Part shown: positions 34,984-54,632 of the stretch, one piece after another
Layout: each line of letters starts with the position of its first letter
Position numbering within the stretch: position 1 is the stretch's first letter
Source of the DNA: a virus
DNA: 64,000 nucleotides
Virus record (IMG/VR): IMGVR_UViG_3300000313_000054
Strand: one strand, 5' to 3'
Notes under the pieces: generated by a model
Told to the model about the DNA's origin: nothing
What the model saw: only the letters and a program-made list of their open reading frames with translations
Databases searched by the model: none
Made by a program: the position numbers and the translations under genes

Positions 34984-34992
34984 GAGGTTTAA

Positions 34993-35463: not shown

Positions 35464-35466
35464 AAT

Positions 35467-36198: not shown

Positions 36199-36207
36199 GT
36201 GGTCTAA

Positions 36208-37176: not shown

Positions 37177-37325
37177 GGTTGTGATAAAAATAAAAGAAAG
37201 GAGGTTAGCTAAGTCCTGATATTAGTGGTACACAAAAACAGTGATGTCGTAAAGCTGAAAATTGCGACAAATAAAAATTAAATAAACAACTTTAGGGAAG
37301 TAAAATCAATTTTCTTTAGCAAGGT

Positions 37326-37362
37326 GGGGGTGATGATATGAGCGTATCATCACTCCCAAATT
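37326..37362 (+). other. stable 13-bp hairpin without a U-tract in the intergenic region
   Basis: GGGGGTGATGATA-tgagcg-TATCATCACTCCC. Confidence 0.4.
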
Positions 37363-37380
37363 AAAAAGGTGGTGAATCAG

Positions 37381-37761
37381 ATGTTGACTTTTGCGTTTAT
37401 TGGTGTTTTAGCGTTAGTTCTTACCATCATTTCATTCAGATGGTACAATTTACTTTTGTCTTTTGTAGCTTGTTTGGCGTGGCTTGCTTTATGGGCTTAC
37501 AATTTGAGTTACCCAATGACAGGTGTAACTTCCAATTCATTTATTGGTGACGCTATTAACTTCTTACTTGTCCTTCTCGCTATTGTTACCATGCTAATTT
37601 ATTTTAGAAATCGTGGTAAAGCAGCAGGTTCATTTAATGCCAGTAGTAGTGATGAAGGTGTAAGACCTCAATTAAGTAATTCACAAACTAGGAATTTAAT
37701 GGACTTAGATACTAACGAATACAAAGCGTATTTAAAAGCTCGAAGAACTAATAGGAAATAG
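37381..37761 (+). CDS. membrane protein
   Basis: ATG after RBS aaggtgg; 3 TM helices. Confidence 0.55.
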   Translation: MLTFAFIGVLALVLTIISFRWYNLLLSFVACLAWLALWAYNLSYPMTGVTSNSFIGDAINFLLVLLAIVTMLIYFRNRGKAAGSFNASSSDEGVRPQLSNSQTRNLMDLDTNEYKAYLKARRTNRK

Positions 37762-37763
37762 AA

Positions 37764-37988
37764 ATGGATATTTATAGGTTGACTCCTCAAGGTGAAATGG
37801 TATCTCATACTATTAGACCTAATCTAAACAAGCCTAGATCACCGTATCGTTGGGCTATTATTTATAGGCTACGAGAAGGGTGTAAGGACAAGGATTCATT
37901 ACTTGATATGACAGGTGCTTCTTCAGGCGATTTATCATATTTACAAAGTAAGGGCGTTATTACTAAACGAGATGAAGTAGTTATTTAA
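37764..37988 (+). CDS. hypothetical protein
   Basis: 74 aa. Confidence 0.5.
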   Translation: MDIYRLTPQGEMVSHTIRPNLNKPRSPYRWAIIYRLREGCKDKDSLLDMTGASSGDLSYLQSKGVITKRDEVVI

Positions 37989-38003
37989 AAGGAGAAAAAT
38001 AAA

Positions 38004-38237
38004 GTGGCTGGTATTTTTGATATGTTTAAACCGAAACAAAAAAGTATAGACGAACTGGAAGAAGAAACAGAAAATCTTGAAGCAGCTAATCGTGAGAAAG
38101 ATCAAGAATTATCATACGAACAAAAGAAATTAGCAATAGCAGAATTGAAAGCAAGAGGTCTGAAAGTCTCTCAGTTTAGCGGTAACACTTTGGAAGATAA
38201 ATTTAAAAGTGCCGTGCGCTGGATTCGCAGTCACTAA
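38004..38237 (+). CDS. hypothetical coiled-coil protein
   Basis: GTG start after aaggag. Confidence 0.5.
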   Translation: MAGIFDMFKPKQKSIDELEEETENLEAANREKDQELSYEQKKLAIAELKARGLKVSQFSGNTLEDKFKSAVRWIRSH

Positions 38238-38379: not shown

Positions 38380-38409
38380 TTGACTTTAATATGTATGTAT
38401 TGGTATAAT
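38380..38409 (+). promoter_or_regulatory. sigma-70 promoter TTGACT-18-TGgTATAAT; ATG at 38416 is 6 nt after -10
   Basis: -35 at 38380-38385, -10 at 38404-38409. Confidence 0.65.
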
Positions 38410-38415
38410 GAGAAT

Positions 38416-39972
38416 ATGAGAAGAAAAATAATTATCTCAGTTTGCTTGATTTCATATGTACTATTTATTACTTTACCAGCTGTACTCCATCGATATATTT
38501 ATCCCAATTCAGGTGATGACTCTGCCACAATCCTTAATATGTTCCGTTTTGACAATTTAATGCAGTTAAATCATTATGGATATGCAATAATTGGATACCC
38601 TCTTAATTGGTTAGCATCTGTGACATCTATTCCACTGGCCTCTTTATATTTATGGTTCAGTTATATTGCATTGGTTGGAGTAGGACTTAGTTTATTCTTC
38701 ATTTTAACTAAGTTAGTTAACTATAAAGCTGGTTTACTTGCGTTAGTTATTCCGACTTTGCTATCGAGAGGTTTTATAACCCTATTTGACTACGGTATGA
38801 TCTTTAATATTATTAGTTCTGGCATTCTATTGCCGTTCTTGATTTATTTTTCAATTAAATATGTAATCACAAATCGAAAAGTCTACCTAATCTCATCTAT
38901 ATCACTCACATTTATATACAGTATCTTTCATACGATGGGTATTTATCTAGCTCCAATATGTTTAGTCATGTTAATGTTCTATATAATTTATAAAAGAAAA
39001 GAAGTTAATAATTCAATTATCCTATTTCTCGATGTGGTGATTATAACTAATTTGGTAGGAACAATATTAAGAATTTATCCATCAAGATTTTCTATTACTA
39101 ATACTGATATTCCAATTAGCCAGAGTTTAACAAACTTTTACGTGTACGTTTTGGTCTTGAGCCTTGTGATACTTTTATTCCTATATATTTTGCGTAAGAA
39201 TAGAATATTTAAGTGGCTATCATATAGTCTCATAGTCTTAATGGGTTGTACTTTAATCTGTGAATATCTTGTAATGAAACCAGAGGCGAGTTGGATAGTC
39301 AATGGTGTTACATCTGGTTCTGGTAAGATTATGCCGATTGATTGGATGTTAGAAATTATAAATCCAGTAACATTAATTGCGTTGTTTTTATCTATACTTT
39401 TAATATGGGGTTTAATTAAGGATTTAAAAACAGAAACTAAGTTATTAATTTTTGTTTATGTATTATTATCTTTAATGTTAGCAACCTTCGCTTTATTAGG
39501 TTTGACTCCTACACCAGATAGAATGACATTTGATTTAGCGAATATGATAGGTGTATTAACAGCTATTTGCGTTGGTTTAATGTGGAATTATAAGAAGTTA
39601 CATATAATAGTGGTAGCTATAGTGGTGATAAGTTTTTATTCAACATCTTTTGGATGGTGTAGTTATCGAAACGCTGTAAAGCCAGTCGATGTTGAGACTA
39701 TGGAATATTTAGATACATTGAACTATAGTTCTTATACTTGTTCTCCGACTATAAATCCAGACATCTACGATCAGTTTACTAAAGCGAAGTATAATAAAAA
39801 TTCTGATGTGCTTATAGTCCGTAATTTAGCTATGACCCCACAGAGCGACCCTACTAGTTTAGCTTATAATCCTCATGGTCAAACATCAACCGAAGGGTTT
39901 AAACTTGATAAAGAATTTAGTGAAACAATGCGTGGTATAGAGATTAAAATAGATATTTATATTAAGGAATAA
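38416..39972 (+). CDS. large polytopic membrane protein (about 12 or more TM); Wzy/GT-C-like polymerase or glycosyltransferase candidate; leaderless start
   Basis: the ORF track extends the start upstream of the promoter; in-frame ATGAGAAGAAAA at the predicted +1. Confidence 0.55.
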   Translation: MRRKIIISVCLISYVLFITLPAVLHRYIYPNSGDDSATILNMFRFDNLMQLNHYGYAIIGYPLNWLASVTSIPLASLYLWFSYIALVGVGLSLFFILTKLVNYKAGLLALVIPTLLSRGFITLFDYGMIFNIISSGILLPFLIYFSIKYVITNRKVYLISSISLTFIYSIFHTMGIYLAPICLVMLMFYIIYKRKEVNNSIILFLDVVIITNLVGTILRIYPSRFSITNTDIPISQSLTNFYVYVLVLSLVILLFLYILRKNRIFKWLSYSLIVLMGCTLICEYLVMKPEASWIVNGVTSGSGKIMPIDWMLEIINPVTLIALFLSILLIWGLIKDLKTETKLLIFVYVLLSLMLATFALLGLTPTPDRMTFDLANMIGVLTAICVGLMWNYKKLHIIVVAIVVISFYSTSFGWCSYRNAVKPVDVETMEYLDTLNYSSYTCSPTINPDIYDQFTKAKYNKNSDVLIVRNLAMTPQSDPTSLAYNPHGQTSTEGFKLDKEFSETMRGIEIKIDIYIKE

Positions 39973-39974
39973 AA

Positions 39975-40730
39975 ATGAAGGTAGTTATATTTTGTGGTGG
40001 TCGTGGTTTTAGACTTCAGGAGGAAACTGAGTATCGTCCTAAACCTTTGGTATCAATTGGTGGCATACCTATCTTAGTCCATATAATGAATATCTATTCC
40101 CGTTATGGAATTAATGAATTTATTCTATGTTTGGGTTATAAAGGTCAGATGATAAAAGACTACTTTATTAATTATGACACAATGACAAACGATGTCACAG
40201 TTGTATTAGGGGATGAACATAAAATTATAGTGGAAAGGAAACAAGAAAAACTTAATTCAGTAGTTACAATGGTGGATACTGGATTAGAAACAATGACAAG
40301 TGAACGCCTAACCAGAATTAAAAAATATATTGGAAATGAAACATTTATGCTAACTTATGGCGATGGTGTTTCAGATATAAATATTCAAGACTTACTTCTA
40401 TTTCACAAAGCACATGGAAAGATTGCAACAGTTACAGCAGTCCACCCGACTTCTAAGTATGGCGTAATTAAATCAGAACATGGTGAAGTCACAAAGTTCT
40501 CAGAAAAACCAGTACAAAGTGACAGAATTAGTGCTGGTTTTTTTGTATTTGAGCCGGAAGTTTTTAATTATCTAGATGACGGAATGTTAGAACAAACCCC
40601 ATTACATAAGTTGTCAGAAAATAAACAATTAAGAGCTTTTGAGCATAATGGATGTTTTCATTCTATGGATACTTATAGTGATTTTAATGAATTAAATAAA
40701 ATGTGGAATGAGGGGAAAGCTAAATGGTAA
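39975..40730 (+). CDS. rfbF: glucose-1-phosphate cytidylyltransferase
   Basis: [34 protein letters not shown]... is the RfbF/DdhA signature. Confidence 0.8.
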
Positions 40731-41698
40731 ATTGGCAGGACAGACCTGTTTTAGTTACAGGTGCTACAGGATTATTAGGTGGTTGGCTTACTAAAAGGTT
40801 AATAGATTTAAATGCGGGTGTTGTTTGTTTAGTAAGAGATTGGAACCCGAATAGTTTATTTGAAATGAACAGATTAGAGGAATCAGTATGTGTAGTTAAT
40901 GGCGATATTACAGACCAGAGATTATTAGAAAGAATATTAGGTGAATATGAAATTGAGATGGTATTCCATTTAGCTGCCCAAACTATTGTAGGGATTGCAA
41001 ATCGTAATCCAGCATCAACATTTGAATCCAATATTAAAGGTACGTGGTCATTATTAGAAGCGTGTAGAAGAAGTCCTAAAGTTCAGTCAATTGTAGTCGC
41101 ATCAACGGATAAAAGTTATCGTGAGGATTGTAAGTTACCTTATAAAGAAGATATGGCATTAGGTGGTAGTTATCCTTACGATGTTTCAAAATCTTGTGCC
41201 GATTTAATTGCACAATCCTACGGTAAAACTTATCAACTTCCCGTGGCTATTACACGATGTGGAAACTTATACGGTGGTGGTGATTTGAATTGGAATAGAG
41301 TGATACCTGGAACAATCAGATCAGTTATTCGTGGTGAGCAACCAGTAATTAGATCGAATGGAAAGTTTATCAGAGATTATGTTTACGTTCAAGATGCTGT
41401 AAACGCATATATAAAATTATCAGAGTGTGTCTCAGAAAACAATGTTTTAAATGGTCAGGCGTTTAATTTTTCCAATGATACCCCAATGAACGTATTGCAA
41501 ATAGTGGATAGTGTATTAAATTTAATGCAAAGTAAACTGAAACTTATTGTTCAAAATAAAGCGAGTAACGAGATATTAGAACAAAGTTTATCATCAGAAA
41601 AAGCATTTAATCTATTGGGTTGGAAGTCTGAGTATACATTAGAACAAGGTTTGGATGAAACTATTAAGTGGTATAAGGGGTATTTCAGTGAAAGATAG
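40724..41698 (+). CDS. rfbG: CDP-glucose 4,6-dehydratase (SDR)
   Basis: [19 protein letters not shown] Rossmann motif, YDVSK catalytic pair. Confidence 0.7.
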
Positions 41699-42896
41699 AA
41701 TAAGAGTTCCTTATGCTGGTAGAGTCTACGATGATAACGAAATTAATAATTTAATTGATGCTTCTAAAAAGTTCTGGTTAACAAGTGGAGAATATTCTGG
41801 AAAATTTAAGAAAGGATTATCAGAATTTACAGGTGTTAAATACGTTGTCTTAACTAATTCAGGTTCGTCAGCTAATCTCTTAGCAATTTCAAGTCTTAAA
41901 GCAATTGGTAAATTAAAAGATGGTGATGAAGTAATCACTACAGCCTGTGGTTTCCCAACTACCCTAAATCCTATTATTCAGAATAATTTAGTTCCAGTAT
42001 TTGTAGACGTAGACGATACGTTAAATATCGATGTTACTAAACTTGAAGCGGCATTATCGCCTAAAGTTAAAGCACTAATGATACCTCATACTCTAGGTAA
42101 CCCCTTTGATATTTCAAGAGTAATGTCTTTCGCAATAAGACATGAAATCGAGATTATAGCAGATTGTTGTGATGCGTTGGGGTCACAGTATCGAAATATG
42201 TCAGTAGAGCAATGTGCAACTATTTCTACGCACTCGTTCTACCCTGCTCATGGAATTACGTGCGGTCAGGGTGGAGCAGTTTTAACTAATTCTAAAGAGC
42301 TATATCGTGTAATTAATTCTATGAATACTTGGGGGCGTGACTGCACCTGTAATTCAGGACAAGATAATAAATGTGGTAAAAGATTTGAAGGACAATATGG
42401 TGATTTACCATTTGGTTACGACCATAAATATGTTTATTCATACATAGGTTATAATTTTGAAATGACTGATTTGCAGTCGGCAATTGGTGTCGCTCAATTA
42501 GAAAAGTTGCCCGATTTCATAAGACTTAGAAAGAGTAATTATAAGTATTTGTATAACAATCTTAAAAAGTTTGGCGTTGTATTTAAGTTTCCCACAGTCA
42601 ATCAAGGAGCAGACCCTTGTTGGTTCTCATTTCCAATAACAATGAGAAATACAACAGCATTAAGAAGGAATGATGTTGTTAAATATTTAGAAGAAAACAG
42701 TATTCAGACACGCTTGTTATTTGGTGGAAATTTATTAAGACAACCTGCTTATAAAAATATTCAACATAGGGTAGTTGGAGAATTAACAAATACAGATTAC
42801 ATTATGAATAATTCGTTTTTCATTGGGGTCTATCCTGGTTTGGATAAAAAGAAATTAGACTACATGATTGAGGCGATTGAGGACTTGGTGGGATGA
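41655..42896 (+). CDS. rfbH: DegT/DnrJ family PMP enzyme with C-x-C-x7-C Fe-S motif: CDP-4-keto-6-deoxyglucose 3-dehydrase (E1)-like
   Basis: aminotransferase fold motifs plus [11 protein letters not shown], the [2Fe-2S] motif characteristic of E1; likely start is the GTG at 41688. Confidence 0.6.
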
Positions 42897-43831
42897 ACTT
42901 ACTATCTAAAGATTTAAAATATATGGCTGATAATGTGGATTGGGTTGAATTAAACAATTCACGTATTTTAATAACAGGTGCATCAGGGTTTGTTGGAAGT
43001 TGGATGGTAGACAGTATTCTCTATGCTAAAGATAAATTTAAGTTAGATATTGAAGTTTGTGTTTTAACCAGAGACTTTAATAAATTATTGGATATGTATG
43101 GTAATAAGGTTACTATTTATAGTGGGGATGTAAGAGATGTTTCATTAGGTGGGTTTGATTATATTATCCATTTAGCTTCACATGAAGGTCATAGATTAAT
43201 GGTTGATAATCCGATAGAAATGTACGATATCATAGCGAATGGTGCTTGGAATATGTTAAGACTTGCATGCAAATGTAGTTGTAAAAAAATCCTTTATATG
43301 AGTTCTGGAGTAGTAACTAAAGAAGAAATTAATCCTTATTCACAGGGTAAAAAGATGGGTGAATATCTTTGTAATCTCTATCACGAACAATACGGGTTGG
43401 ATATAAAAATAGCCAGAGGATTTGATTTCATTGGTGGTAGAATACCATTAGACAAACACTTTGCAATAGGCAATTTTATAAACGATATATTAAATGATAG
43501 GCCAGTAGACATAAAGAGTGATGGACTTGCCGTAAGGTCGTATCTTTATATGGCAGATGTTGTAGTTTGGTTGTGGACTATATTATTAAAAGGGCAATCA
43601 TGTGTTCCATATAACGTTGGTTCTCATAAGGCATATACAATAGGTAGTGTGGCGAGAATGGTAGCGGATTTTGGTAGGTATAATAAAGGTATAAATTGTC
43701 ACTCATTAAGTAGCGGAGTAAACGATAGTTATTATCCTGAAATTAATAACGTAAAAGACTTGGGGTTGATGCAAATGGTAGGATTAAACGATGCTATTAA
43801 AATGACATTAGATTGGTATAAAAACTTTTAA
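42893..43831 (+). CDS. NAD-dependent sugar epimerase/reductase (SDR)
   Basis: ITGASGFVGSW, YSQGK. Confidence 0.6.
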   Translation: MNLLSKDLKYMADNVDWVELNNSRILITGASGFVGSWMVDSILYAKDKFKLDIEVCVLTRDFNKLLDMYGNKVTIYSGDVRDVSLGGFDYIIHLASHEGHRLMVDNPIEMYDIIANGAWNMLRLACKCSCKKILYMSSGVVTKEEINPYSQGKKMGEYLCNLYHEQYGLDIKIARGFDFIGGRIPLDKHFAIGNFINDILNDRPVDIKSDGLAVRSYLYMADVVVWLWTILLKGQSCVPYNVGSHKAYTIGSVARMVADFGRYNKGINCHSLSSGVNDSYYPEINNVKDLGLMQMVGLNDAIKMTLDWYKNF

Positions 43832-43885
43832 TAAGTGTTGGTTAATGGTATAATTAAGTATGTAGTAAGGATTGGATTTATATAA

Positions 43886-45379
43886 ATGAGACTAAATGAA
43901 GTAATGCCATTATTTATACTCGAAATGGCTAATTCCCACTCAGGTAATTTGGAACATGGTTTAAAAATAATTAACGAAATGCGTAAAGCAACTCAAAACT
44001 TTAATTTCAAATTAGCTATAAAGTTTCAGTACAGGGACATAGACTCATTCATCCATCCAGATTTTAAAGGTGATTATTCGTTTAAATATATAAAAAGGTT
44101 TTCAGAAACACGACTAAAAGAATCTGATTTATTGACTTTAAAAACTGAAGCTCAAAGGTTAGGTTTCATCACGATGTGTACTCCATTTGATGAAAACTCA
44201 GTGGACTTAGTTGAAAAGCATAATTACGATATCATAAAGATCGCCTCATGTTCATTTACCGACTGGCCTCTATTAGAAAGAATTATAAAGACAGATAAAC
44301 CAATAATTGCTTCAACAGCAGGTATTGATATGAAAGATATTGAGAGTTTTGTTTCCTTTATGGAACATCGGAATAAAGACTTTGCATTGTTACATTGTGT
44401 AGCGCAGTATCCAACACCTGATAAATATTTATCGTTGGGTAGAATTAAAATTCTCAAAGACAAATTCCCTGAAATACCGATTGGTTATTCAACACACGAA
44501 AATCCAGATAACTATGATTCTATTAAAGTTGCTATCGGTCAAGGTGCTACAATATTTGAGAAACATGTAGCTATACATACCGATGAGATAATGCCTAATG
44601 CGTATTCTGCGATACCAGAACAAGTAGGAAAGTGGTTACAGTCTGCTTTACACGCTTACGAAATGTTGGAAGTTTCAGAACCAAAAGAGAACGAATTAAA
44701 AGAGTTGAAAGCCTTACAACGTGGTGCGTATTGTAAGCGTAAAATTAAAGTAGGTGAACCTGTAAAATTAGAAGATGTATTCTTTGCTATACCAACAGTT
44801 GAAGGGCAATATACAGCCAACGATTTTTCAAAATATGTAGAATTTAAGACTAAAATTGATATTCCAGAAAAATACGCATTACTTAAAGATGATATCCAAA
44901 AAATAGATAAAAGAAATGGAGTATCCGTTATCGTTCATAAGGTTAATGACTTTATTAAACAATCTGGTTTGTCTATCCCATCTAAGGTCGATATAGAAGT
45001 TTCACATCACTACGGAATGGAATTTTTTGATTTGTATGGTATGACTATTTTTACAATTATTAATGAGGAGTACTGTAAGAAATTATTAGTTTTATTGCCT
45101 AATCAACAACATCCTACTCAGTACCATAAAAAGAAAACAGAAACATTCCATATATTAGCAGGTGAAGTATTTATTACTTTAAACGGATGTAAACAGAAAT
45201 ACGTAAAAGATGATATTATCACAGTTAATATTGGTGTAAAACATTTTATGGAAACATTAACTGGTGTAGTGATTGAGGAAATATCAAGTACTCATTACAA
45301 AGATGACTCTTTTTATACAGATGAAAAGATAAACTCTAATCCAAATAGAAAAACAAAATTAACATATTGGTTGGAATAA
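43886..45379 (+). CDS. NeuB/PseI-like sugar-acid synthase (PEP condensing) with SAF domain and an extra C-terminal cupin-like domain
   Basis: N-terminal FILEMANSHSGNLEHGLKII pattern, SAF-like RKIKVGEPVKLEDVF, C-terminal 150-aa extension. Confidence 0.5.
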   Translation: MRLNEVMPLFILEMANSHSGNLEHGLKIINEMRKATQNFNFKLAIKFQYRDIDSFIHPDFKGDYSFKYIKRFSETRLKESDLLTLKTEAQRLGFITMCTPFDENSVDLVEKHNYDIIKIASCSFTDWPLLERIIKTDKPIIASTAGIDMKDIESFVSFMEHRNKDFALLHCVAQYPTPDKYLSLGRIKILKDKFPEIPIGYSTHENPDNYDSIKVAIGQGATIFEKHVAIHTDEIMPNAYSAIPEQVGKWLQSALHAYEMLEVSEPKENELKELKALQRGAYCKRKIKVGEPVKLEDVFFAIPTVEGQYTANDFSKYVEFKTKIDIPEKYALLKDDIQKIDKRNGVSVIVHKVNDFIKQSGLSIPSKVDIEVSHHYGMEFFDLYGMTIFTIINEEYCKKLLVLLPNQQHPTQYHKKKTETFHILAGEVFITLNGCKQKYVKDDIITVNIGVKHFMETLTGVVIEEISSTHYKDDSFYTDEKINSNPNRKTKLTYWLE

Positions 45380-45381
45380 AA

Positions 45382-45681
45382 ATGATATATGGTATTGATA
45401 TGGATGGAGTAATTTGTAAAACTAATGGGACTGATTATCAACATAGTGTACCAGTTAGTGACGTAATCGACAAAATAAATTCATTATATCACAAAGGCGA
45501 TAAGATAATTATTTATACAGCAAGAGGAACCAAGTCTGGATTAGATTTAAGACAACTAACGCAGAGCCAATTAAAAGCGTGGGACGTTAAGTACCATGAA
45601 TTGATATTCGGGAAGCCAGTCTTTGATATTTATGTTGGTGATGAAGCAATCAATATAATAAATTGGATGGAGAGTAAATGA
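45382..45681 (+). CDS. small HAD-superfamily phosphatase
   Basis: MIYGIDMDGVI begins with the DxDGV motif I. Confidence 0.5.
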   Translation: MIYGIDMDGVICKTNGTDYQHSVPVSDVIDKINSLYHKGDKIIIYTARGTKSGLDLRQLTQSQLKAWDVKYHELIFGKPVFDIYVGDEAINIINWMESK

Positions 45682-46733
45682 TAATACAGCAACAAGAAGA
45701 AATCTTAAAACGTAATTATGTTAAAGAAATGAAACCGTATGTTTACAGGAAAATGATGAAGTTTCCAGAAAAAGTAGCTCGTGGTGAAAGCGTTGCGATA
45801 ATCCAATTCCAGTATGATTATAAATGTAATTTCAGGTGTGTTCATTGTTCGATTAAACGATTTCAAAATAAAAAAGATGTTCGTAAAATGTCTATTAATG
45901 ATGTTAAAAACTTATCAAAACAGGCAGATGAATTGGGACTTGCAAGGTTCGTTATTACAGGTGGAGAACCACTAATTTTTAAAGACTTTGACCAATTAGT
46001 GAGTGCTATAGACCCACATAAATTTTATATTAATTGTGATACTAATGGTTGGTTTTTAGATAGACTGAAAGTAAAACATTTAAAGTCCATTGGAGTAGAT
46101 AGAATACAATTAAGTATTGATAGCCTTGATAGAAAAGAGCATGATGATTTTAGAATGGCAGAAGGTTCACATGAAAGAGCTATGAAAGCTGTTGACTTTT
46201 GTTTGCAAGAAGGTATGAACATTTTTATTCAAACCGTAGTTTCTAAACAAAGATTATATACTCAAGAATTTGTTGAGTTTATAAAATATTTTAACAAAAA
46301 AAATGTCGGCGTATTTGTTTCATTTGCAAAACCAGTAGGAAGTTGGCAGGGTAATTTTGACGTATTAATAAACGATAATGACCTAATGTATTTTGAGAAT
46401 GCTTTGCAGAGTAGATATAAAGTATTTTCTCATTTAACACCATCCTATGGTAGTAAAGGTGGTTGCGTAGCATCTACAAATATACTATCAATTAATGAGA
46501 CAGGTGACGTACTTCCATGTATTTATTTTCCTGTATCAATAGGTAATATCTTTGATGAATCATTAAAAGATATACTCGAAAGGGCAGTTAGATTAAAACC
46601 TTTTAAGACTGACATTTGCCCAATGGCAGTTAAGAGCGACTTTATTGAGAAATACCTTGTGAAAACATATAACAAGGACTTACCAGTAGATTATAGAGAA
46701 ATATTTAGTGAGGAAGATTTTATTAATGGGTAA
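45678..46733 (+). CDS. radical SAM enzyme with C-terminal Cys-rich (SPASM/twitch-like) region
   Basis: CNFRCVHC CxxxCxxC motif; later GGCVASTN...CIYFP cysteines. Confidence 0.65.
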   Translation: MIIQQQEEILKRNYVKEMKPYVYRKMMKFPEKVARGESVAIIQFQYDYKCNFRCVHCSIKRFQNKKDVRKMSINDVKNLSKQADELGLARFVITGGEPLIFKDFDQLVSAIDPHKFYINCDTNGWFLDRLKVKHLKSIGVDRIQLSIDSLDRKEHDDFRMAEGSHERAMKAVDFCLQEGMNIFIQTVVSKQRLYTQEFVEFIKYFNKKNVGVFVSFAKPVGSWQGNFDVLINDNDLMYFENALQSRYKVFSHLTPSYGSKGGCVASTNILSINETGDVLPCIYFPVSIGNIFDESLKDILERAVRLKPFKTDICPMAVKSDFIEKYLVKTYNKDLPVDYREIFSEEDFING

Positions 46734-47745
46734 TAAAGCTACAGATGTAAGTGGAACAGCACCAGGTGGACAACGTATACGATTGGTAGACTCTTTGCCG
46801 TTAAAAACACCTTACCTTATTGAGATATTCCCTAGTTATCTTTGTAATTTTAAATGTAAGTATTGTATACATTCGATACCATTAAAAGAACGTGGTTACA
46901 TATCAGATAAGATACACATGGACTTTGTAATGTATAAAAGATGTATTGATGACATTAGTAAGTTCCCTGAAAAATTAAAAGTTTTAAGATTTGCAGGAAT
47001 GGGAGAACCTTTACTACATCCAGATATTGTGGGGATGGTTGCGTATGCAAAATATAAAAACATAGCCGATAAAATAGAGATATTAACTAATGGCTCATTA
47101 TTAACTCATAAGTTATCTGATGCGTTAATTAAAGCAGGTTTAACACGACTATATGTCTCCTTGCAAGGTTTATCAAGTGAACGATATCTCGAAGTTAGTG
47201 GAATAAAATTGGACTTTGATAAGTTTGTTGACAATATTAGGTATTATTATGAATCTAAAGGTGACTTAAAAATTCACATAAAAATTATTGACTACACATT
47301 GAAGGATGATAAAGAAAAGGCTCAGTTTTACCAAATATTTAGTGGCATTTGTGATACTATAGGAATAGAATTGGCAAGTCCGATCTATCCGTATGTTGAT
47401 TATAATAAAGTGCTAGAGAAAAATAATGATACTAAAACACAGTTTGGATTATGTTTGAATAATATTAAGACTTGTCCACAACCATTTTTCAGGTTACATA
47501 TAATCCCAGACTTTAATGTTATTCCATGTTACTCTATGGAATATCCTGAAATAATTGGAAACTGTGCGAATGATTCAATCGTTGATATTTGGAAAGGTGG
47601 TAATTTAAAAAAGTTTAGATTAGGTATGTTAAAAGAGGGCGTTTGTTTTAATAAGATTTGTAATAAATGTAAAATTATTAAATGTAGAATATTTCAAGAG
47701 GACATTCTGGATAACGATGTTGAGAGATTAAAGGGGTTATATTAA
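46726..47745 (+). CDS. second radical SAM enzyme with C-terminal Cys-rich region
   Basis: CNFKCKYC; start placed at ATGGGTAA overlapping the upstream stop. Confidence 0.65.
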   Translation: MGNKATDVSGTAPGGQRIRLVDSLPLKTPYLIEIFPSYLCNFKCKYCIHSIPLKERGYISDKIHMDFVMYKRCIDDISKFPEKLKVLRFAGMGEPLLHPDIVGMVAYAKYKNIADKIEILTNGSLLTHKLSDALIKAGLTRLYVSLQGLSSERYLEVSGIKLDFDKFVDNIRYYYESKGDLKIHIKIIDYTLKDDKEKAQFYQIFSGICDTIGIELASPIYPYVDYNKVLEKNNDTKTQFGLCLNNIKTCPQPFFRLHIIPDFNVIPCYSMEYPEIIGNCANDSIVDIWKGGNLKKFRLGMLKEGVCFNKICNKCKIIKCRIFQEDILDNDVERLKGLY

Positions 47746-47746
47746 A

Positions 47747-49402
47747 TTGAGATTATCAGATTTTGTCTTTAAATATTTAAAAGAGTATGGTGTTAATCAC
47801 GTATTTACATTAGTGGGTGGTGGCTCAATGTATCTTGACGATTCATTAGGGCATTCAGGAATACCATTTACTTGTAACCTGCATGAACAAGCATGTGCTA
47901 TATCTGCAATAGCCTATGCAGAATATAATAATAAATTAGGAGTATGTCTTGTTACAACTGCACCAGGTGGAACGAATACTATTACAGGTGTAGCAGGTGC
48001 ATGGTTAGATTCAGTGCCACTACTTGTTATCTCAGGACAAGTTAAACGTGCAGATTTAAAAAGTGGGAAGTTAAGACAACGTGGATTCCAAGAATTAGAC
48101 GTTGTTAAAATAGCACATTCGATTACTAAATACGCTGTTATGGTTAAAGAACCAACAGAAATAAAATATCATTTAGATAGGGCAATAAGTTTAGCAACAC
48201 ATGGTAGGAAAGCACCAGTTTGGTTGGATATACCATTAGATGTCCAACTAAGCGAAGTAGATGAATCTAAATTAAAAGGATTTACTGGTGACATAGACAA
48301 TAAATTAACTAATCATGTTGTTCAACATAAAGTTATAGGGACAATAAATTATTTAAACTACGCAGAGAAACCAGTTATCCTAGTCGGTAACGGGTGTCGT
48401 TCTAGTATTGATAAACTAATTGAGTTAGTTCAAGGTTTGAACATACCAATATTAACTACATGGAAAGCTATGGATTTGTTTGATAACAATGATTCGTTAT
48501 ATTGTGGTAGACCTGGAATGGTTGGTCAACAAGGTGCTAATATTATTCAGAACGAATGTGATTTACTGATATCTATTGGAGCAAGATTAGATTTGGGACA
48601 AACGGGATATGATGTTAAAAGTTTTGCACCAAAAGCAAAGAAGATAGTAGTTGATTTAGACTCAGCAGAAATAGGAAAGATAGATAGTATTAAAGTTCCA
48701 ATTTGTTGTGATGCAGAATTATTTATTGAGGAAATGCTAACACAAAAACACAGTATCAAGATTAGAGATAATCAATGGTTGCTTAGTTGTAGATTATTAG
48801 CATGTAAAAACATATTAGTCAATAATAGTCCATACGAAAGTGTTGATACTTATAATTTAGTAGATGTTATCGCTAATAATATGAACGAGTCGGATGTGTT
48901 AGTTCCGGCAAGTTCAGGACAAGCAGCAGAAATAACTATGCAGAACTTTAGAGTTAAAAATGGACAGCGTATACTTAATTTTCCAGCATTAGGGTCAATG
49001 GGGTTTGGTATTTGTTCTTCCATAGGCGCATGTTTGGCAAGTAGTAAAAAGAGAACTATATGTATTGAGGGTGATGGTTCTTTCGCTATGAATACTCAAG
49101 AGTTGGAGACTATACATAGGTTGCATTTACCGATTAAAATATTTGTTTTAAACAACTATGGGTATCGTAGTTTGCGGTCTACTCAAGACAGATATTTCAA
49201 TGGATTTCATGTAGGTAGTTCCTTAGATAGTGGACTAACTTTACCCAATATTAGAGGTATTGCCGAGGCGTATTCGATAGATTATCAAAGAATAGATAAT
49301 GAATTTAGATTAGATAATTGGATAAGAGAATATCTTAGAGATGATAAGCCACGCATCATTGAAGTTAAAACAAACTATAATCAGGAAACAATAAAATGTT
49401 AA
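47747..49402 (+). CDS. thiamine-diphosphate-dependent enzyme (acetolactate-synthase/YerE-like)
   Basis: TTG start; IEGDGSFAMNTQELETI TPP-binding motif; 3-domain size. Confidence 0.65.
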   Translation: MRLSDFVFKYLKEYGVNHVFTLVGGGSMYLDDSLGHSGIPFTCNLHEQACAISAIAYAEYNNKLGVCLVTTAPGGTNTITGVAGAWLDSVPLLVISGQVKRADLKSGKLRQRGFQELDVVKIAHSITKYAVMVKEPTEIKYHLDRAISLATHGRKAPVWLDIPLDVQLSEVDESKLKGFTGDIDNKLTNHVVQHKVIGTINYLNYAEKPVILVGNGCRSSIDKLIELVQGLNIPILTTWKAMDLFDNNDSLYCGRPGMVGQQGANIIQNECDLLISIGARLDLGQTGYDVKSFAPKAKKIVVDLDSAEIGKIDSIKVPICCDAELFIEEMLTQKHSIKIRDNQWLLSCRLLACKNILVNNSPYESVDTYNLVDVIANNMNESDVLVPASSGQAAEITMQNFRVKNGQRILNFPALGSMGFGICSSIGACLASSKKRTICIEGDGSFAMNTQELETIHRLHLPIKIFVLNNYGYRSLRSTQDRYFNGFHVGSSLDSGLTLPNIRGIAEAYSIDYQRIDNEFRLDNWIREYLRDDKPRIIEVKTNYNQETIKC

Positions 49403-50379
49403 TATCAATTTGTATACCAACTTATAATAGAGCGTTATTATTAGATAGATCACTAGATTCTATTATTAAAGAGTTTTTAGATTATGATATTGAGATAATT
49501 ATATCAGATAATGCTTCATCAGATAATACTCAAGAAGTAGTTAGTGGGTATCAAGAGGAATATTCGTTTATTAAGTACTTTAGGAACGCTACCAACTTAG
49601 GATTAGATGAGAACGCCGTAATTTGCATAAAGAAGGCAATTGGTAAGTATGTCTTTATGTTCTCAGATGATGATATTTTATTACATGGATGTGCCAAAGA
49701 AATTATGCAAGTTATTAATGAGTTAAATCCTAACTTTATGTACTTGAATTACAAAAATTTTGGTGAAAAATCGAATGTAGTATTCCATTGGGACAAAGTG
49801 AAAGATTTAGAGAATATAATTTACAAGAATGGTTATAAAATGGTTCTTGAATTATATCCCACTCACTTTTCGGCAATGATTTATAAACGTGATGAGGTTT
49901 TAAAATATATATCTAGTTTAGAACAGTATAGAGATTGTGGATATGACAGAGGGTATGCCACTTCAACGTTAGCCCACCATATTTTGTTAGAGTCAAAACC
50001 ACCATTCGTTTTTATTGGTAGATGTTGTGCAGAAGTGGAGTTTCCAACTAATAAAAGAGATTATAATTTAATTCAAGTTTATTGCATTGATATAATCAAA
50101 CATTGCCAGAATCTTAGATGTAATAGACTTATAAATAGTTTTCAATTAAACCAAATAGTTAATAAACATGTTTTATGGCATACTACTAAACTTATTGTGT
50201 TAGCTAAGGGAACTAATAAGTTAACAAAGAATGAATGTAAGTTAATATGGGATCATTGTAATGGTTTTTGGTTATCATATTTCTGCGTATTTCCATCCTT
50301 GGTGCTACCCAATATTATTTTAAAATACATTCTTGGTATTGTTTTAAAGTATCGTAGATTAAGTGTTGAAAATGAATAA
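49396..50379 (+). CDS. family 2 glycosyltransferase
   Basis: ISICIPTYNR...IIISDNASSDNT. Confidence 0.65.
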   Translation: MLISICIPTYNRALLLDRSLDSIIKEFLDYDIEIIISDNASSDNTQEVVSGYQEEYSFIKYFRNATNLGLDENAVICIKKAIGKYVFMFSDDDILLHGCAKEIMQVINELNPNFMYLNYKNFGEKSNVVFHWDKVKDLENIIYKNGYKMVLELYPTHFSAMIYKRDEVLKYISSLEQYRDCGYDRGYATSTLAHHILLESKPPFVFIGRCCAEVEFPTNKRDYNLIQVYCIDIIKHCQNLRCNRLINSFQLNQIVNKHVLWHTTKLIVLAKGTNKLTKNECKLIWDHCNGFWLSYFCVFPSLVLPNIILKYILGIVLKYRRLSVENE

Positions 50380-50707
50380 AATTTTTAAACAGTACAACAT
50401 AAAAGGCGTTGGTTCCTCCATTTATACTCTGTATTTAGCAGCCCCAATGATAGGAATATTTATGTATATCATTAACGCCTTTACTTTTTATGTAGTAGCT
50501 AGAGATAAATATTTCCCTTGGATTAATCCCCCACTTTTTATATTATTTGCTTGTGTAGGTTTAATACTTTTACTATTTGTATTTTTTAAATTTGTCTTAC
50601 CATCGTATATATCATTTATTAATAGACAGTCTTATATCCATAATAATCCGATACAAATGGATTTAGCTAAGATAAAAAAGAAATTAGGGATAGAAGATGA
50701 TGAATAA
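50363..50707 (+). CDS. GtrA-like small membrane protein (polyprenol-sugar flippase component)
   Basis: 114 aa, 3-4 TM, immediately upstream of a GtrB-like gene. Confidence 0.45.
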   Translation: MLKMNKIFKQYNIKGVGSSIYTLYLAAPMIGIFMYIINAFTFYVVARDKYFPWINPPLFILFACVGLILLLFVFFKFVLPSYISFINRQSYIHNNPIQMDLAKIKKKLGIEDDE

Positions 50708-51638
50708 GAAGTTAATTTCAATAGTAACTCCTGTCTATAATGAATCAAGTAATATAAATTATATAAGACAAGATGTACTAAATGTAATGAGAGATTTAAA
50801 AAGTTACGAGCATGAGCATATATTTATAGACAATGCGTCTACAGATAATACTTTAATTCTTTTGAAAGAGTTGGCAAAAGAAGATAAACGAGTTAAGATT
50901 ATCAGGAATAATAGAAATTTTGGTCATATTCGTTCACCTTATTATGGTTTGTTACAAACCAAAGGGGATGTTGTAACAATTATCTCTGCCGATGGTCAAG
51001 ACCCTCCAAGCTTAATTAAGGATTTCGTAAAAGAATGGGAGCATGGTGCTAAAGTAGTTGTAGGGGTGAAAGTTAATAGCAAAGAGAATTTTTTAAGATT
51101 CAATTTACGTAAAGGTTATTATAAAATTCTAAGTAGACTTTCAGATGTTCCATTAGTTGAGAATTTTATGGGATTCGGTTTATATGATAGAATAGTAATT
51201 GATAAGTTAAAAGAGATTGATGACCCATATCCATATTTAAGGGGTTTGGTTTCTGAATTAGGATATAGTACTTCAAGGGTGGAATATTATCAGCCTAAAA
51301 GAAAAAATGGTAAGAGTCACAATAATTTTTACACTATATTTGACATAGCTTTATTAGGTATAACTAATAATACAAAAGTTCCATTAAGGGTTGCTACAAT
51401 ATTGGGCTTTTGTTTTTCAACAGTTAGTTTTATCGTAGGGATTGTTTATCTTATTTATAAGTTATTGAATTGGGGGAGTTTTGAAGTAGGTCTTGCACCA
51501 ATGGTTATAGGGATGTCATTTTTAGGTGGTATACAAATATTATTTTTAGGATTATTAGGTGAGTATATTGGGGCTATTTACACTCAAGTTTTACACAGAC
51601 CATTAGTTATCGAGAAAGAACGGATAAATTTTGATTAA
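50697..51638 (+). CDS. GtrB/ArnC/DPM1-like polyprenol-phosphate sugar transferase (GT2 with C-terminal TM pair)
   Basis: SIVTPVYNE, DNASTD, ADGQDPP (DxD), C-terminal TM helices and GEYIGAIY. Confidence 0.8.
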   Translation: MMNKKLISIVTPVYNESSNINYIRQDVLNVMRDLKSYEHEHIFIDNASTDNTLILLKELAKEDKRVKIIRNNRNFGHIRSPYYGLLQTKGDVVTIISADGQDPPSLIKDFVKEWEHGAKVVVGVKVNSKENFLRFNLRKGYYKILSRLSDVPLVENFMGFGLYDRIVIDKLKEIDDPYPYLRGLVSELGYSTSRVEYYQPKRKNGKSHNNFYTIFDIALLGITNNTKVPLRVATILGFCFSTVSFIVGIVYLIYKLLNWGSFEVGLAPMVIGMSFLGGIQILFLGLLGEYIGAIYTQVLHRPLVIEKERINFD

Positions 51639-51662
51639 AGAGATTTATATAAAGGAGCAAAA

Positions 51663-51833
51663 ATGAATAGAGACTTTCTAAATTTAATACCAGTTTCCAA
51701 CTCTGAATTGTGGTGTGCAACTTGCGAACATGTAGTGGATGATGAACTGAGAATTTGTAAGTGTGGAGAACCTAATAAGGTAAATTTCAAACAGTGGGTA
51801 AAAGAAAAGAAAGAGAAAGAGGGTAATAAATAA
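51663..51833 (+). CDS. small zinc-ribbon protein (56 aa)
   Basis: CATCEH...CKCGE; TAATG overlap with next gene. Confidence 0.45.
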   Translation: MNRDFLNLIPVSNSELWCATCEHVVDDELRICKCGEPNKVNFKQWVKEKKEKEGNK

Positions 51834-53521
51834 TGCTGAGTTTTCTTAAAAAATACTATCCCGAAATTCTAGTCTTTGGATTCATAGCAACGATTCTTTT
51901 TACTTGCTTGAGTCCTGATTATACATTTGTAAATAAAGGTGCGGATTCAATCGGTTACGCATATAGTGCCAAGTACCTCTACCCTTCCTTTCACACATCA
52001 CCACCTTTGTACCTTGTAGTTTCCCACTTCTTTTTAATGTTACCATTTGGAACTGAAGCATGGAGAATGGGGTTAGTCTCTACTCTTAGTACGCTTGGTG
52101 CTTGTGTCTTTATCTACTTGATTATTCGTAAACAATTAGCAGATAAAAAGTATTTTAGATGGCTTGCCTTGTTAGGTGTCTTAGTCTATGGTACAAGTGC
52201 AATAGTAATTTCACAAAGTGTTATTATCCAGACCTATCCGCTTACCTGTATGTTATCAATAGGTGCGTATTACTTTGCTGTAAAGCAACAATGGAAACGA
52301 ACTGCATTGATGTTGGGACTTGGAATGATAGTCCACTTACTAGCGTTCTTCATCGCTTTAATTATTATCTTAGCGTTCAAGGGATTCAGAAAGAACTGGA
52401 AGTGCTGGCTAATTATGGGTGTAATGATGATAGCTTACATCTACATTCCTTTAACAAACAGACCACCTTATATGTGGCAACCAGACCCATCAATTGTAAA
52501 CTCTAACTTACCACCGTTCTTAGTGAACATCTATTCCTTTGTAGTGGATACTGCCTCTACTGTAGGCTATTTAATCGGTAAACTTTCAATCTACGATACT
52601 CCCAAAAGAATCTTTGATATCATTGGGATAGTGGGTGTAAGTGTTGGTGTAGTTGCTATAATTCCTATCGTCTACTACTTCTTTAAGACAAAGTATTATA
52701 CCAATGTTTTATTCTGGTTAGCACTTACACCTAGTTTCATATTTCTAGTGAACATGGATGAAAATACTTACGATTATTGTATGCTGTCAATTCCCTTTTT
52801 GTCTGTAATTACTGCATTGGGAATGAGCAAATTAATCGAAAATAAAGGCAGACTAGCAATTAAATTTGCTTGTGCGACAGCAGTTGTGCTTATCGGGTTT
52901 GGTTCGTTTAATATGTGGTACTTCGATGTTGGACATCATAGTGATCCGAATATGACAGCCAAAAATCTTTACTACGTAGAGTTCGCAAAAATTCCAGATT
53001 ATGCTATTTTTATGCCGAACTATTGCTCAGAATGGGAAGCAATTTACAAATATAATAGAGATTTTAATAAGCACATCTATCCTATCTCTATAGACATTTT
53101 ACCTAGTCATCAATACCTTCAAACCTTGAAAGCAGATGGTATAAAATTTGTAGAAGGAACAAATGAGAATGTCAGTTTAGCATCCAGAGAAACAGCAGCT
53201 TCAATTATAGAATTAAATGATAATGTCTGGACTACAATCTCTACAGAACCAGAAACATTTGGCGTAACAGTTATTAAAGCCACAGACCCTAAAGTTGTAG
53301 ACATCTATGACGTTCAAAAAATGAAAGATATTGCAGAACATCCTACTGTAAAATGGATGCCATCCAATCCTTACCGCATCATCGACAGTTCTCTCTGCAT
53401 CCAAGAGTGGGGATACGTGTTGATGTCCAACAATAATATCTCACGCTTGATACTCTATTCTACTTTAGGATTTGCTGTAGTTTATATAGTTAGAAAGCAG
53501 TTTAAAAAGAATAAAAAATAG
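51833..53521 (+). CDS. GtrC-like / GT-C polytopic membrane glycosyltransferase (562 aa)
   Basis: about 11 TM helices followed by a large extracytoplasmic C-terminal domain; position after GtrA/GtrB-like pair. Confidence 0.5.
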   Translation: MLSFLKKYYPEILVFGFIATILFTCLSPDYTFVNKGADSIGYAYSAKYLYPSFHTSPPLYLVVSHFFLMLPFGTEAWRMGLVSTLSTLGACVFIYLIIRKQLADKKYFRWLALLGVLVYGTSAIVISQSVIIQTYPLTCMLSIGAYYFAVKQQWKRTALMLGLGMIVHLLAFFIALIIILAFKGFRKNWKCWLIMGVMMIAYIYIPLTNRPPYMWQPDPSIVNSNLPPFLVNIYSFVVDTASTVGYLIGKLSIYDTPKRIFDIIGIVGVSVGVVAIIPIVYYFFKTKYYTNVLFWLALTPSFIFLVNMDENTYDYCMLSIPFLSVITALGMSKLIENKGRLAIKFACATAVVLIGFGSFNMWYFDVGHHSDPNMTAKNLYYVEFAKIPDYAIFMPNYCSEWEAIYKYNRDFNKHIYPISIDILPSHQYLQTLKADGIKFVEGTNENVSLASRETAASIIELNDNVWTTISTEPETFGVTVIKATDPKVVDIYDVQKMKDIAEHPTVKWMPSNPYRIIDSSLCIQEWGYVLMSNNNISRLILYSTLGFAVVYIVRKQFKKNKK

Positions 53522-54189: not shown

Positions 54190-54615
54190 ATGAATAGTTG
54201 TTGTTATGAAGTAGAAGTAGAAATCCTTACAGGTAGTCAACATTACGGAAATTATGTAGTAGAAAAGACAGTAGACAAAAGAAAGTGGGATAGAAAAGAC
54301 AGACATTATCGACTGAGTGAAGAACCTGCTTTTAAAGGTGTACAAATCAAAGAGAAGATTGTAAAAATGTTCAACTTCGAGAATTGTACCAGACAACAAG
54401 CTATTGAAAAGGGAAAGAAAAAAGGGATTGTAAAGACCTGTCGTAAAGTTGATGAGTACGAAGATTTACTTAGCATAGAACACATCCAATTAGACCAAGT
54501 TCCTTTAACAGTCTATGATAAGGGTAATCAATACGTTAGTCCTATCGCTATGTCAGAGATGGTTTGGCAAAAGAAAAAGAATATTAAAAAGCCTCTTGAC
54601 ACCAGCGAAAGTTAG
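54190..54615 (+). CDS. hypothetical protein
   Basis: 141 aa. Confidence 0.55.
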   Translation: MNSCCYEVEVEILTGSQHYGNYVVEKTVDKRKWDRKDRHYRLSEEPAFKGVQIKEKIVKMFNFENCTRQQAIEKGKKKGIVKTCRKVDEYEDLLSIEHIQLDQVPLTVYDKGNQYVSPIAMSEMVWQKKKNIKKPLDTSES

Positions 54616-54632
54616 TGATAAAATGTGTATAG

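Follow-up and report, generated by a model that had tools for sequence, protein, structure and literature searches.

A stretch of 64,000 nucleotides from IMG/VR virus record IMGVR_UViG_3300000313_000054, referred to below as the window, carries between positions 38380 and 53521 a block of 15 intact plus-strand open reading frames (ORFs) that are packed like an operon and encode enzymes of nucleotide-sugar synthesis together with membrane glycosyltransferases. The successive junctions measure 2, −7, −44, −4, 54, −13, −4, −26, 1, −7, −17, −11, 24 and −1 nucleotides, and the block appears to be one operon-like unit. Its G+C content (30–35%) is near that of the surroundings (30–38%), and the block is therefore not compositionally foreign. 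The same block, identical in every base, is present in a Logan contig of 61 kb (SRR404151) and in a JGI contig of 17 kb (3300001213), both from wetland samples, and the longest contig with the block's proteins measures 67 kb. The features of the block are listed below; domain calls were made with Pfam, and the equivalog cut-offs quoted are the curated thresholds of the TIGR/NF (NCBIfam) models.

38380..38409, plus strand: promoter-like site, TTGACT-18-TATAAT, plus an extended −10 element (TG)
38416..39972, plus strand: polytopic glycosyltransferase of the GT-C fold
39975..40730, plus strand: glucose-1-phosphate cytidylyltransferase, RfbF/DdhA-like (TIGR02623; Pfam NTP_transferase)
40724..41698, plus strand: cytidine diphosphate (CDP)-glucose 4,6-dehydratase, RfbG/DdhB-like, a short-chain dehydrogenase/reductase (SDR) (best model TIGR02622)
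41655..42896, plus strand: E1, CDP-6-deoxy-L-threo-D-glycero-4-hexulose 3-dehydrase (RfbH/DdhC/AscC)
42893..43831, plus strand: extended SDR of unassigned specificity (Pfam Epimerase)
43886..45379, plus strand: NeuB-type synthase dependent on phosphoenolpyruvate (PEP), fused to a metal-binding cupin (Pfam NeuB, PF03102, and Cupin_2)
45367..45681, plus strand: small phosphatase of the haloacid dehalogenase (HAD) type, 104 residues
45678..46733, plus strand: radical S-adenosylmethionine (SAM) enzyme 1 (rSAM1) with a twitch-like partial SPASM domain (Pfam Radical_SAM and SPASM, above cut-offs)
46708..47745, plus strand: radical SAM enzyme 2 (rSAM2) with a full SPASM domain (Pfam Radical_SAM and SPASM, above cut-offs)
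47747..49402, plus strand: putative sugar-branching carboligase, YerE-like and dependent on thiamine diphosphate (ThDP), with three TPP domains
49396..50379, plus strand: family 2 glycosyltransferase (GT2) with one hydrophobic C-terminal segment (Pfam Glycos_transf_2; PglI-like, 65 bits)
50363..50707, plus strand: small membrane protein of 114 residues with about two transmembrane (TM) helices, from hydropathy
50697..51638, plus strand: polyprenyl-phosphate glycosyltransferase of the GtrB/ArnC/PgfS type (PgfS 180 bits, ArnC 109 bits)
51663..51833, plus strand: ORF of 56 residues without assigned function, called by the gene finder in L001 and L002, with a weak zinc-ribbon match only
51833..53521, plus strand: glycosyltransferase of the GT-C fold, TMEM260/DUF2723-like

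On sequence criteria, the product of 41655–42896 is an unambiguous E1 3-dehydrase, predicted to depend on pyridoxamine 5′-phosphate and a [2Fe-2S] cluster. It scores 580 bits against NF011936 (cut-off 423) and 456 bits against the E1 structure of Yersinia pseudotuberculosis (3BCX); in the alignment a histidine, His199 of the motif SFYPAH, replaces the lysine of pyridoxal 5′-phosphate, and the [2Fe-2S] ligands C172-X57-C230-X-C232-X7-C240 have the exact spacing of E1. The C-x-C-x7-C motif that an earlier, first-pass annotation of the sequence had pointed out in this DegT-family protein is thus that of a genuine Fe-S E1 and not of an ordinary aminotransferase without the cluster. The two genes upstream have RfbF and RfbG models as their best matches, with a dTDP-glucose dehydratase model second for the latter (175 bits), and both assignments are backed by the adjoining CDP-specific E1, in agreement with the entry to CDP-3,6-dideoxyhexoses proposed by the same annotation. 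E1 normally receives its electrons from E3 (DdhD/AscD), a flavin/[2Fe-2S] reductase. No domain of this kind is present in any ORF of the locus, and a tblastn search of the window with the NAD_binding_1 gene that lies beside E1 in a Chloroflexi relative (L007) gave no match, so that the lack of a visible E3, also noted at first pass, holds in both the domain scan and the tblastn search. By tblastn, no more than 5 out of 108 related loci have a counterpart of that NAD_binding_1 gene.

The ThDP enzyme is most similar, among proteins of solved structure, to 8RPH (288 bits) and 5AHK (256 bits), the second of which we take to be PpYerE; all acetohydroxyacid synthases of plants, yeast and bacteria score at most 236 bits. 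The first, 8RPH, is JanthE (PMC12188165; PMC12247030), and JanthE and PpYerE are the solved YerE-like enzymes (reviewed in PMC12247030). The NCBIfam equivalogs for acetolactate synthase are all missed by a wide margin (best 357 bits, cut-off 538) and the window contains no ilv genes, so that scores and context both speak against a true acetolactate synthase, and the earlier choice of a YerE-type over an ilv-type enzyme stands. What weighs most in the YerE-like call, which is made from sequence, is genomic linkage: the gene shares its operon with those for RfbF, RfbG and E1, and the same association is seen in 34 of the 41 related loci examined for it, namely those genome loci in which at least 8 kb is available on either side of the gene for the NeuB-cupin protein.

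In the NeuB-cupin protein, the PF03102 domain scores 141 bits (cut-off 22), and the uncharacterized protein 3G8R is a very near match (375 bits). It fails the equivalogs for NeuB (126 bits, cut-off 399.65) and for PseI (120 bits, cut-off 340.25). The cupin domain resembles D-lyxose/mannose isomerase, and its metal-ligand positions, H409, H414, E419 and H453, are invariant or nearly so in 24 relatives. The gene that follows encodes the small HAD protein, which has the motif I sequence DMDGV and matches TIGR01689, a capsule-biosynthesis phosphatase model, at an E-value of 1.7e-7, a weak hit whose score falls short of the cut-off; a 55% identical homologue stands at the equivalent place in the related contig L109, and others occur in IMG/VR loci. 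Both genes had been recognized at first pass. A HAD gene of about 100 residues after NeuB-cupin is typical of the window, of L109 and of IMG/VR contigs (L010, L013–L017, L019 and L021), and in the genome loci (L027–L106) a gene of about 190 residues mostly takes its place. The two arrangements may represent a virus-type and a cell-type version of the cassette.

The distribution of the NeuB-cupin fusion bears on its function. The fusion has more than 5000 database hits, counted as protein clusters, at 50–58% identity, and hundreds of genome loci contain it, in bins of Patescibacteria, Omnitrophota, Planctomycetota, Chloroflexota, Nitrospirota, DPANN and Methanoperedens as well as of Saganbacteria, Syntrophobacteraceae, Altiarchaeota and Micrarchaeota. 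Eighty genome loci (L027–L106) and 18 IMG/VR loci were fetched by the NeuB-cupin protein alone. Among the 41 loci defined above, a ThDP enzyme is found near NeuB-cupin in 40, E1 in 34, RfbF in 33, rSAM1 in 28 (40–62% identity to the protein of the window), rSAM2 in 13 and a GtrB-like protein in 12, and the cassette is also present on seven IMG/VR contigs. This recurrence indicates that the sugar cassette is conserved and widespread rather than a single occurrence. Carriage of such chemistry by a mobile element had been called unusual; a qualification is in order, as the same cassette, frequently accompanied by a radical SAM gene or by both, occurs widely among cellular genomes. As judged from gene co-occurrence, NeuB-cupin and the ThDP enzyme are linked in function. 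No family of pyruvate aldolase is represented among the 15 gene products of the block or in the gene lists of L003, L005, L007 and L109.

The SDR encoded at 42893–43831 has a 38% identical homologue at the same place in L109 and is a candidate ketoreductase for the carbonyl of a branch, a role like that of YerF. As the first-pass annotation had it, two radical SAM enzymes with Cys-rich C-termini are encoded further downstream, both with an intact CX3CX2C motif. In rSAM1 the motif is C50-X3-C54-X2-C57, only three cysteines lie in the C-terminal part (263, 281 and 314), and MoaA and BlsE, the latter a nucleoside-sugar decarboxylase, are its relatives of solved structure. In rSAM2 the motif is C46-X3-C50-X2-C53, the C-terminal part has eight cysteines, and the solved relatives, with 7WZV as the top PDB match, include the sugar-acting enzymes BtrN and DesII.

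A published scheme offers a framework for this enzyme set. ErwE, MMAR_2332 and MyGE accept hydroxylated 2-keto acids as donors, and pyruvate is rejected by ErwE and preferred by YerE; the proposed acceptor is CDP-4-keto-3,6-dideoxyglucose, the proposed source of the donor is a pyruvate aldolase encoded in the cluster, and a reductase acts afterwards (Steitz et al., 2022; PMC9306805). We consider it probable, to a degree slightly above an even chance, that the product of the block is a CDP-activated 3,6-dideoxyhexose bearing a long branch at C4 and that the block brings this sugar to the membrane's outer face. Beyond the families, folds, E1 motifs, gene linkage and GtrB homology described here, we infer all substrates, in which order the steps occur, what the SDR and the radical SAM enzymes do, and the acceptor. 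In the proposed pathway, the RfbF-like protein, the RfbG-like protein and E1 would convert glucose-1-phosphate to CDP-4-keto-3,6-dideoxy-D-glucose, with electrons for E1 coming from a reductase of the host. The cupin domain would isomerize a ketose or ketose phosphate to an aldose, the NeuB-type domain would join this aldose to PEP to form a 3-deoxy-2-ulosonic acid or its phosphate, and the small HAD protein would remove the phosphate. The donor would be a C8–C9 acid of the type of 3-deoxy-D-manno-octulosonic acid (Kdo) or 2-keto-3-deoxynononic acid (KDN); because such an acid in its open-chain form is a 2-keto acid, it is proposed as the donor of the ThDP enzyme, which would decarboxylate it and add a C7–C8 polyol chain at C4 of the CDP-keto-sugar. 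The SDR would then reduce the carbonyl of the branch, and the two radical SAM enzymes would tailor the sugar or its side chain. Finally, the GtrB homologue would load the sugar onto polyprenyl phosphate and, after flipping, the two GT-C enzymes would put it on an acceptor of the envelope, which may be a glycan or a protein.

The branch would probably be far longer than that of yersiniose, which has two carbons; this view follows from the co-occurrence of NeuB-cupin with the ThDP enzyme and from the published scheme. The earlier annotation had noted that YerE adds the two-carbon branch in yersiniose, and the YerE type of the enzyme is retained. The same two lines of evidence suggest the supply of the keto-acid donor as the role of the NeuB-cupin and HAD genes, to which none had been given before.

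Several observations weigh against this pathway. The scores of the RfbF- and RfbG-like proteins lie below their equivalog cut-offs (296.3 bits against 300.25 for TIGR02623, and 226.1 against 278.45 for TIGR02622). With no E3 in the window, turnover of E1 must depend on another partner. The best solved relative of the SDR is a UDP-glucuronate decarboxylase at only 81 bits, which is uninformative, and the margin by which the ThDP enzyme prefers YerE-like proteins over acetolactate synthases is modest. Behind NeuB-cupin, L003 has an NT5C-like gene and L007 a NUDIX-like one, so that a "phosphatase" in this position is not uniform in cellular loci. Known GtrB enzymes use uridine diphosphate (UDP)-sugars, and the use of a CDP-sugar by the product of 50697–51638 is therefore assumed. 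Moreover, acceptance of ketones in vitro has not been demonstrated for MyGE or for the enzymes of R. palustris and S. aurantia (PMC12247030).

The membrane end of the pathway was first described as a trio of GtrA-, GtrB- and GtrC-like genes, and the three parts of this description fared differently. The product of 50697–51638 is a full-length GtrB homologue with two C-terminal TM helices; it is 33.7% identical to GtrB of Shigella phage SfII over 96% of its length (E-value 6e-35) and matches GtrB of epsilon34 and of SfI similarly, and homologues of 46–62% identity account for the GtrB-like proteins in the 12 loci counted above and occur in L109 as well. GtrA proteins have about 120 residues, four TM helices and the PF04138 domain. 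The 114-residue protein of 50363–50707 has about two helices and gives no PF04138 match even at E ≤ 10; it is thus ruled out as GtrA, although it might conceivably act as a flippase. In the relative L109, a true PF04138 gene occupies that place. GtrC proteins are diverse among themselves. The AlphaFold2 model of the terminal transferase, 51833–53521 (mean predicted local distance difference test (pLDDT) score 90.3), has the GT-C fold, with Foldseek matches to STT3, PglB, Pmt4, ALG9/12 and ArnT, but the protein belongs with TMEM260/DUF2723-like proteins, its homologues having PF11028 and some of them PMT_2 also, and tblastn against GenBank phages, phage GtrC included, gave no match. The transferase at the other edge, 38416–39972, had been described as a large Wzy/GT-C-like membrane protein. 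Foldseek searches with its AlphaFold2 model (pLDDT 89.8) uphold the GT-C part and replace Wzy, the top matches being PglB, STT3, DPY19 and AglB (probability 1.00, TM-score 0.50–0.57). Neither this protein nor any of 10 relatives tested has a Pfam family, and 211 relatives are present in the representative library. In both GT-C proteins an acidic residue of the first outer loop is invariant, D35 (in a GDD motif) in 38416–39972 and D38 in 51833–53521. The GT2 protein encoded at 49396–50379 has no homologue in the other cassette loci fetched and is specific to the element in the window.

The promoter-like site at 38380..38409 is the best sigma-70-like match (11 of 12 positions) between 36 and 55.5 kb. 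It stops 6 nucleotides upstream of the ATG at 38416 and, as a putative promoter, would yield a leaderless or nearly leaderless transcript of 38416–39972. A TTG at 38380 was considered as the start of the first gene; it forms part of the first hexamer of this site, and the ATG at 38416 is the more likely start. An archaeal TATA-like sequence, TTTAATAT, lies at −31 to −24 relative to the same start, so that, as regards the domain of the host, the upstream sequence is compatible with a sigma-70 promoter and with an archaeal TATA box alike. Overall, promoter-like sites are not more frequent than expected by chance (88 observed, 98.9 expected). The second-best sigma-70-like match, TTGACA-17-TAAAAT with TG, is at 54596–54624, where it shares bases with the 3′ end of an ORF (54190–54615); it lies just 3′ of the locus and 5′ of the next ORFs.

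The family of the terminal transferase raises the question of the acceptor. TMEM260, the characterized member of this family, is an O-mannosyltransferase that modifies IPT domains of proteins (PMC10214176), the fold of 38416–39972 is most like those of oligosaccharyltransferases and DPY19, and the window encodes at least five proteins with signal-like sequences. N-termini resembling signal peptides are found in 27086–28594, 29194–31779, 36208–37176, 57917–58804 and 58804–62649, three of which have a C-terminal TM anchor; one of the signal-bearing backbone proteins has a lipobox-like LAFAGC sequence. These could be surface proteins and possible acceptors of the GT-C enzymes. In L109, a protein with a weak TIG domain is encoded just downstream. 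In view of the function of TMEM260 and of these large proteins with signals and anchors, glycosylation of exported or membrane-anchored proteins by the GT-C pair, possibly of the element's own proteins and not of O-antigen or teichoic acid, is a serious alternative, although on balance we think it unlikely: the GT-C fold is no guide to the acceptor, since ArnT and ALG enzymes were matched as well, no IPT/TIG domain was detected in the proteins of the window, and the resemblance to TMEM260 is weak at the level of Pfam. Transfer of the long-branched sugar to an envelope acceptor is compatible with either outcome.

The nature of the carrier was the other point examined. All ORFs of the 64 kb are on the plus strand, and nearly all are ORFans. 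Outside the block, the following features were identified.

5585–5658, 6532–6616 and 6621–6719: genes for tRNA Thr-TGT, Ser-TGA and Ser-CGA, clustered in an ORFan region
7623–8213, plus strand: DnaJ-domain protein
9553–10263, plus strand: homing-endonuclease-like ORF, with 31% identity to that part of an SDR gene of contig L107 (19084–21237) which bears an intein
14567–16396, plus strand: SPFH/Band 7 protein of 609 residues
18103–18504, plus strand: HicB-like antitoxin or Arc-like repressor
19132–26892, plus strand: ORF of 2586 residues with a short repeated domain that resembles part of PDB 8ZVK
35467–36198, plus strand: protein of 243 residues with the Walker A sequence GSQRGGKT, 61% identical to its counterpart in L107

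The backbone also encodes a 1281-residue DUF2341 protein and a 322-residue protein whose relatives occur in viral records only. The 2586-residue ORF has no match in Pfam, PHROGs or GenBank phages, and PDB sequence searches yielded nothing informative for the two largest ORFs. The terminal GT-C protein has relatives of 49–62% identity on similar contigs that are rich in ORFans and coded on one strand, of which the parts compared were L107 10001–21237, L108 1–11701, L109 1–11674 and L110 1–11719. The backbone of L107 is syntenic with positions 34438–38237 of the window, and different cassettes lie beside the GT-C gene: an acetyltransferase, methyltransferases and an intein-bearing SDR in L107; a formyltransferase, an aminotransferase, a radical SAM enzyme and PMT_2 in L108; a 2-epimerase, GT1/GT2 enzymes and a B12–radical SAM enzyme in L110; and the branched-sugar cassette, as in the window, in L109. 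Because the GT-C protein is kept while the cassettes of L107, L108 and L110 differ, the arrangement suggests, at the level of gene order, a variable glycan island composed of a fixed membrane transferase and an exchangeable module for the donor sugar. A TnpB gene (IS605 OrfB; 2776–4035) is located inside the sugar island of L110.

Whether this carrier is a phage, as the first-pass annotation assumed, is a separate matter. No capsid, terminase, portal or tail protein was detected among 30 backbone ORFs with PHROGs and Pfam, and the window may be part of a larger element; a megablast search of the locus and tblastn searches with the 2586- and 861-residue ORFs gave no match among GenBank phages, and an IMG/VR search with the 861-residue ORF and an exact 49-mer gave none either. 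Carriage by a phage is thus not shown, and with the many exported proteins encoded these results favor a plasmid-like or other mobile element or an uncultured cellular genome of low G+C content, in which case lysogenic conversion would not apply. We nevertheless hold a non-phage origin to be doubtful. The coding of all ORFs on one strand, the near-complete lack of relatives, the three tRNA genes and the homing-endonuclease-like and HicB-like ORFs speak against it, as do the solely viral relatives of the 322-residue protein and the RusA encoded in L109, and no housekeeping genes were seen in the 64 kb. IMG/VR contig L111, which encodes a protein of the same GT-C family as 51833–53521 together with a Zot-like ATPase, points in the same direction. 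The ATPase gene of L111 (3238–4143) has a place comparable to that of 35467–36198, within a series of ORFs that resembles that of the window and lies upstream of the GT-C gene. This placement hints at the assembly system of a non-tailed virion, the likeness being one of position. A Borg-like element, considered for its low G+C content and coding on one strand, was dropped when only five short and weak tandem repeats were found in the window. The carrier is therefore likely to be a virus or another mobile element, and the designation "phage" is unproven.

With respect to the product, KDN and Kdo are made on the principle of a NeuB-type synthase followed by a phosphatase, and the block might accordingly make two products, the ThDP enzyme using pyruvate to form a two-carbon branch of the yersiniose type and the NeuB-cupin and HAD proteins forming a separate KDN- or Kdo-like acid. 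This was the implicit model of the first-pass annotation, and YerE itself favors pyruvate (PMC9306805). It appears improbable, because NeuB-cupin is accompanied by the ThDP enzyme in all but one of the 41 loci, no cytidine monophosphate (CMP)-ulosonate synthetase is listed in the locus of the window or in L003, L005, L007 and L109, and the RfbF-like protein is the sole nucleotidyltransferase. NeuB-family enzymes of the legionaminic and pseudaminic acid pathways act on free 6-deoxy sugars that have been split from nucleotide sugars, and on this pattern a HAD, NT5C or NUDIX enzyme would hydrolyze the CDP-dideoxyhexose to free the sugar, NeuB-cupin would add PEP, and the ThDP and radical SAM enzymes would modify the resulting acid, a route that the NUDIX- and nucleotidase-like genes after NeuB-cupin in cellular loci would fit. 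It is highly improbable, given that no activating CMP-transferase was found in the locus, that the pairing of an Fe-S E1 with a YerE-like enzyme marks branching at C4 of a CDP-sugar (PMC9306805), and that the cupin, which resembles an aldose-ketose isomerase, would have no role in it.

A single CDP-activated dideoxyhexose with a long C4 branch therefore remains the preferred product. If this is correct, the locus points to a second route to the branch donor, in which a PEP-dependent synthase of the NeuB type acts instead of a pyruvate aldolase, a class of product could be named for many genes now annotated "spore coat protein" or "sialic acid synthase", and new ThDP enzymes with sugar acids as donors would become available for biocatalysis. 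Likewise, mobile elements would be seen to trade sugar cassettes beside a fixed membrane transferase, and such exchange is a plausible engine of diversity in surface glycans and of change in phage receptors in uncultured microbes. More tentatively, and short of an even chance, a C7–C8-branched 3,6-dideoxyhexose rewritten by radical chemistry may constitute an undescribed class of sugar and a major envelope sugar of candidate phyla, DPANN and other uncultured lineages; its cassette would here be an interchangeable module of a glycan island that is anchored on a conserved GT-C enzyme, and a virus-like element would use it to re-coat the host or the element's own exported proteins. To our knowledge, only a handful of cultured bacteria have been found to contain branched long-chain sugars of the kind of caryophyllose and gastriose. 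In these bacteria such sugars influence virulence and immune recognition, and the cassette is common yet unstudied in many uncultured bacteria and archaea. The literature consulted, which did not extend to a 2024 survey by Krug et al. (Angew. Chem. e202403535) that may already list the cassette, does not link a NeuB-type synthase to a ThDP branching pathway; that survey is said to cover more than 200 YerE-like clusters in silico. As a whole, the first-pass annotation was largely right about the enzymes; it read too little into the NeuB module and too much into GtrA and the phage origin, and it overstated the uniqueness of the locus.

Among known systems, the Gtr modules of Shigella and Salmonella phages share with the window a GtrB homologue followed by a polytopic transferase whose expected site of action is the membrane's outer face. 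The window differs in that it has no member of the GtrA family, a transferase that does not match phage GtrC, and an additional GT-C enzyme and GT2, and in that the donor is made by the locus itself, whereas Gtr modules use UDP-glucose of the host. The analogy is therefore one of logic and of GtrB, and does not extend to the families of the other parts. The synthesis of KDN and Kdo has in common with the window an isomerase (here a domain), a PEP-dependent synthase and a small HAD phosphatase; unlike these pathways, the window has no CMP-activating enzyme, its synthase fails the NeuB and PseI cut-offs, and its product is proposed to be consumed by the ThDP enzyme. The yersiniose A pathway of Yersinia pseudotuberculosis (DdhA–D, YerE and YerF) is closer, in that the RfbF/RfbG/E1 entry and the subgroup of the ThDP enzyme are shared and the cofactor motifs of E1 are identical. 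In contrast to that pathway, the window lacks DdhD/E3, its donor is probably not pyruvate, and NeuB-cupin, HAD and radical SAM genes are additional.

The closest parallel is provided by the acyl-branched pathways for erwiniose (ErwE/F/I/J), caryophyllose (MMAR_2331/2332) and gastriose (MyGE/MygI/MygF) (PMC9306805), which likewise combine the genes for CDP-4-keto-3,6-dideoxyglucose with a YerE-like carboligase, a reductase and a dedicated enzyme, encoded within the cluster, for the synthesis of a hydroxylated 2-keto acid. There, this enzyme is a BphI- or HpcH-type pyruvate aldolase, whereas the window has the NeuB-cupin synthase followed by a phosphatase; the window further adds two radical SAM/SPASM enzymes, lacks E3, and would provide export by polyprenyl phosphate and GT-C enzymes, on a probably mobile carrier rich in ORFans. 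The known product nearest to the proposed sugar is gastriose, which has a 2-deoxy C7 branch, and the best reading of the cassette is that it is a variant of the published acyl-branched-sugar pathway in which NeuB-cupin and a phosphatase stand in the place of the aldolase.

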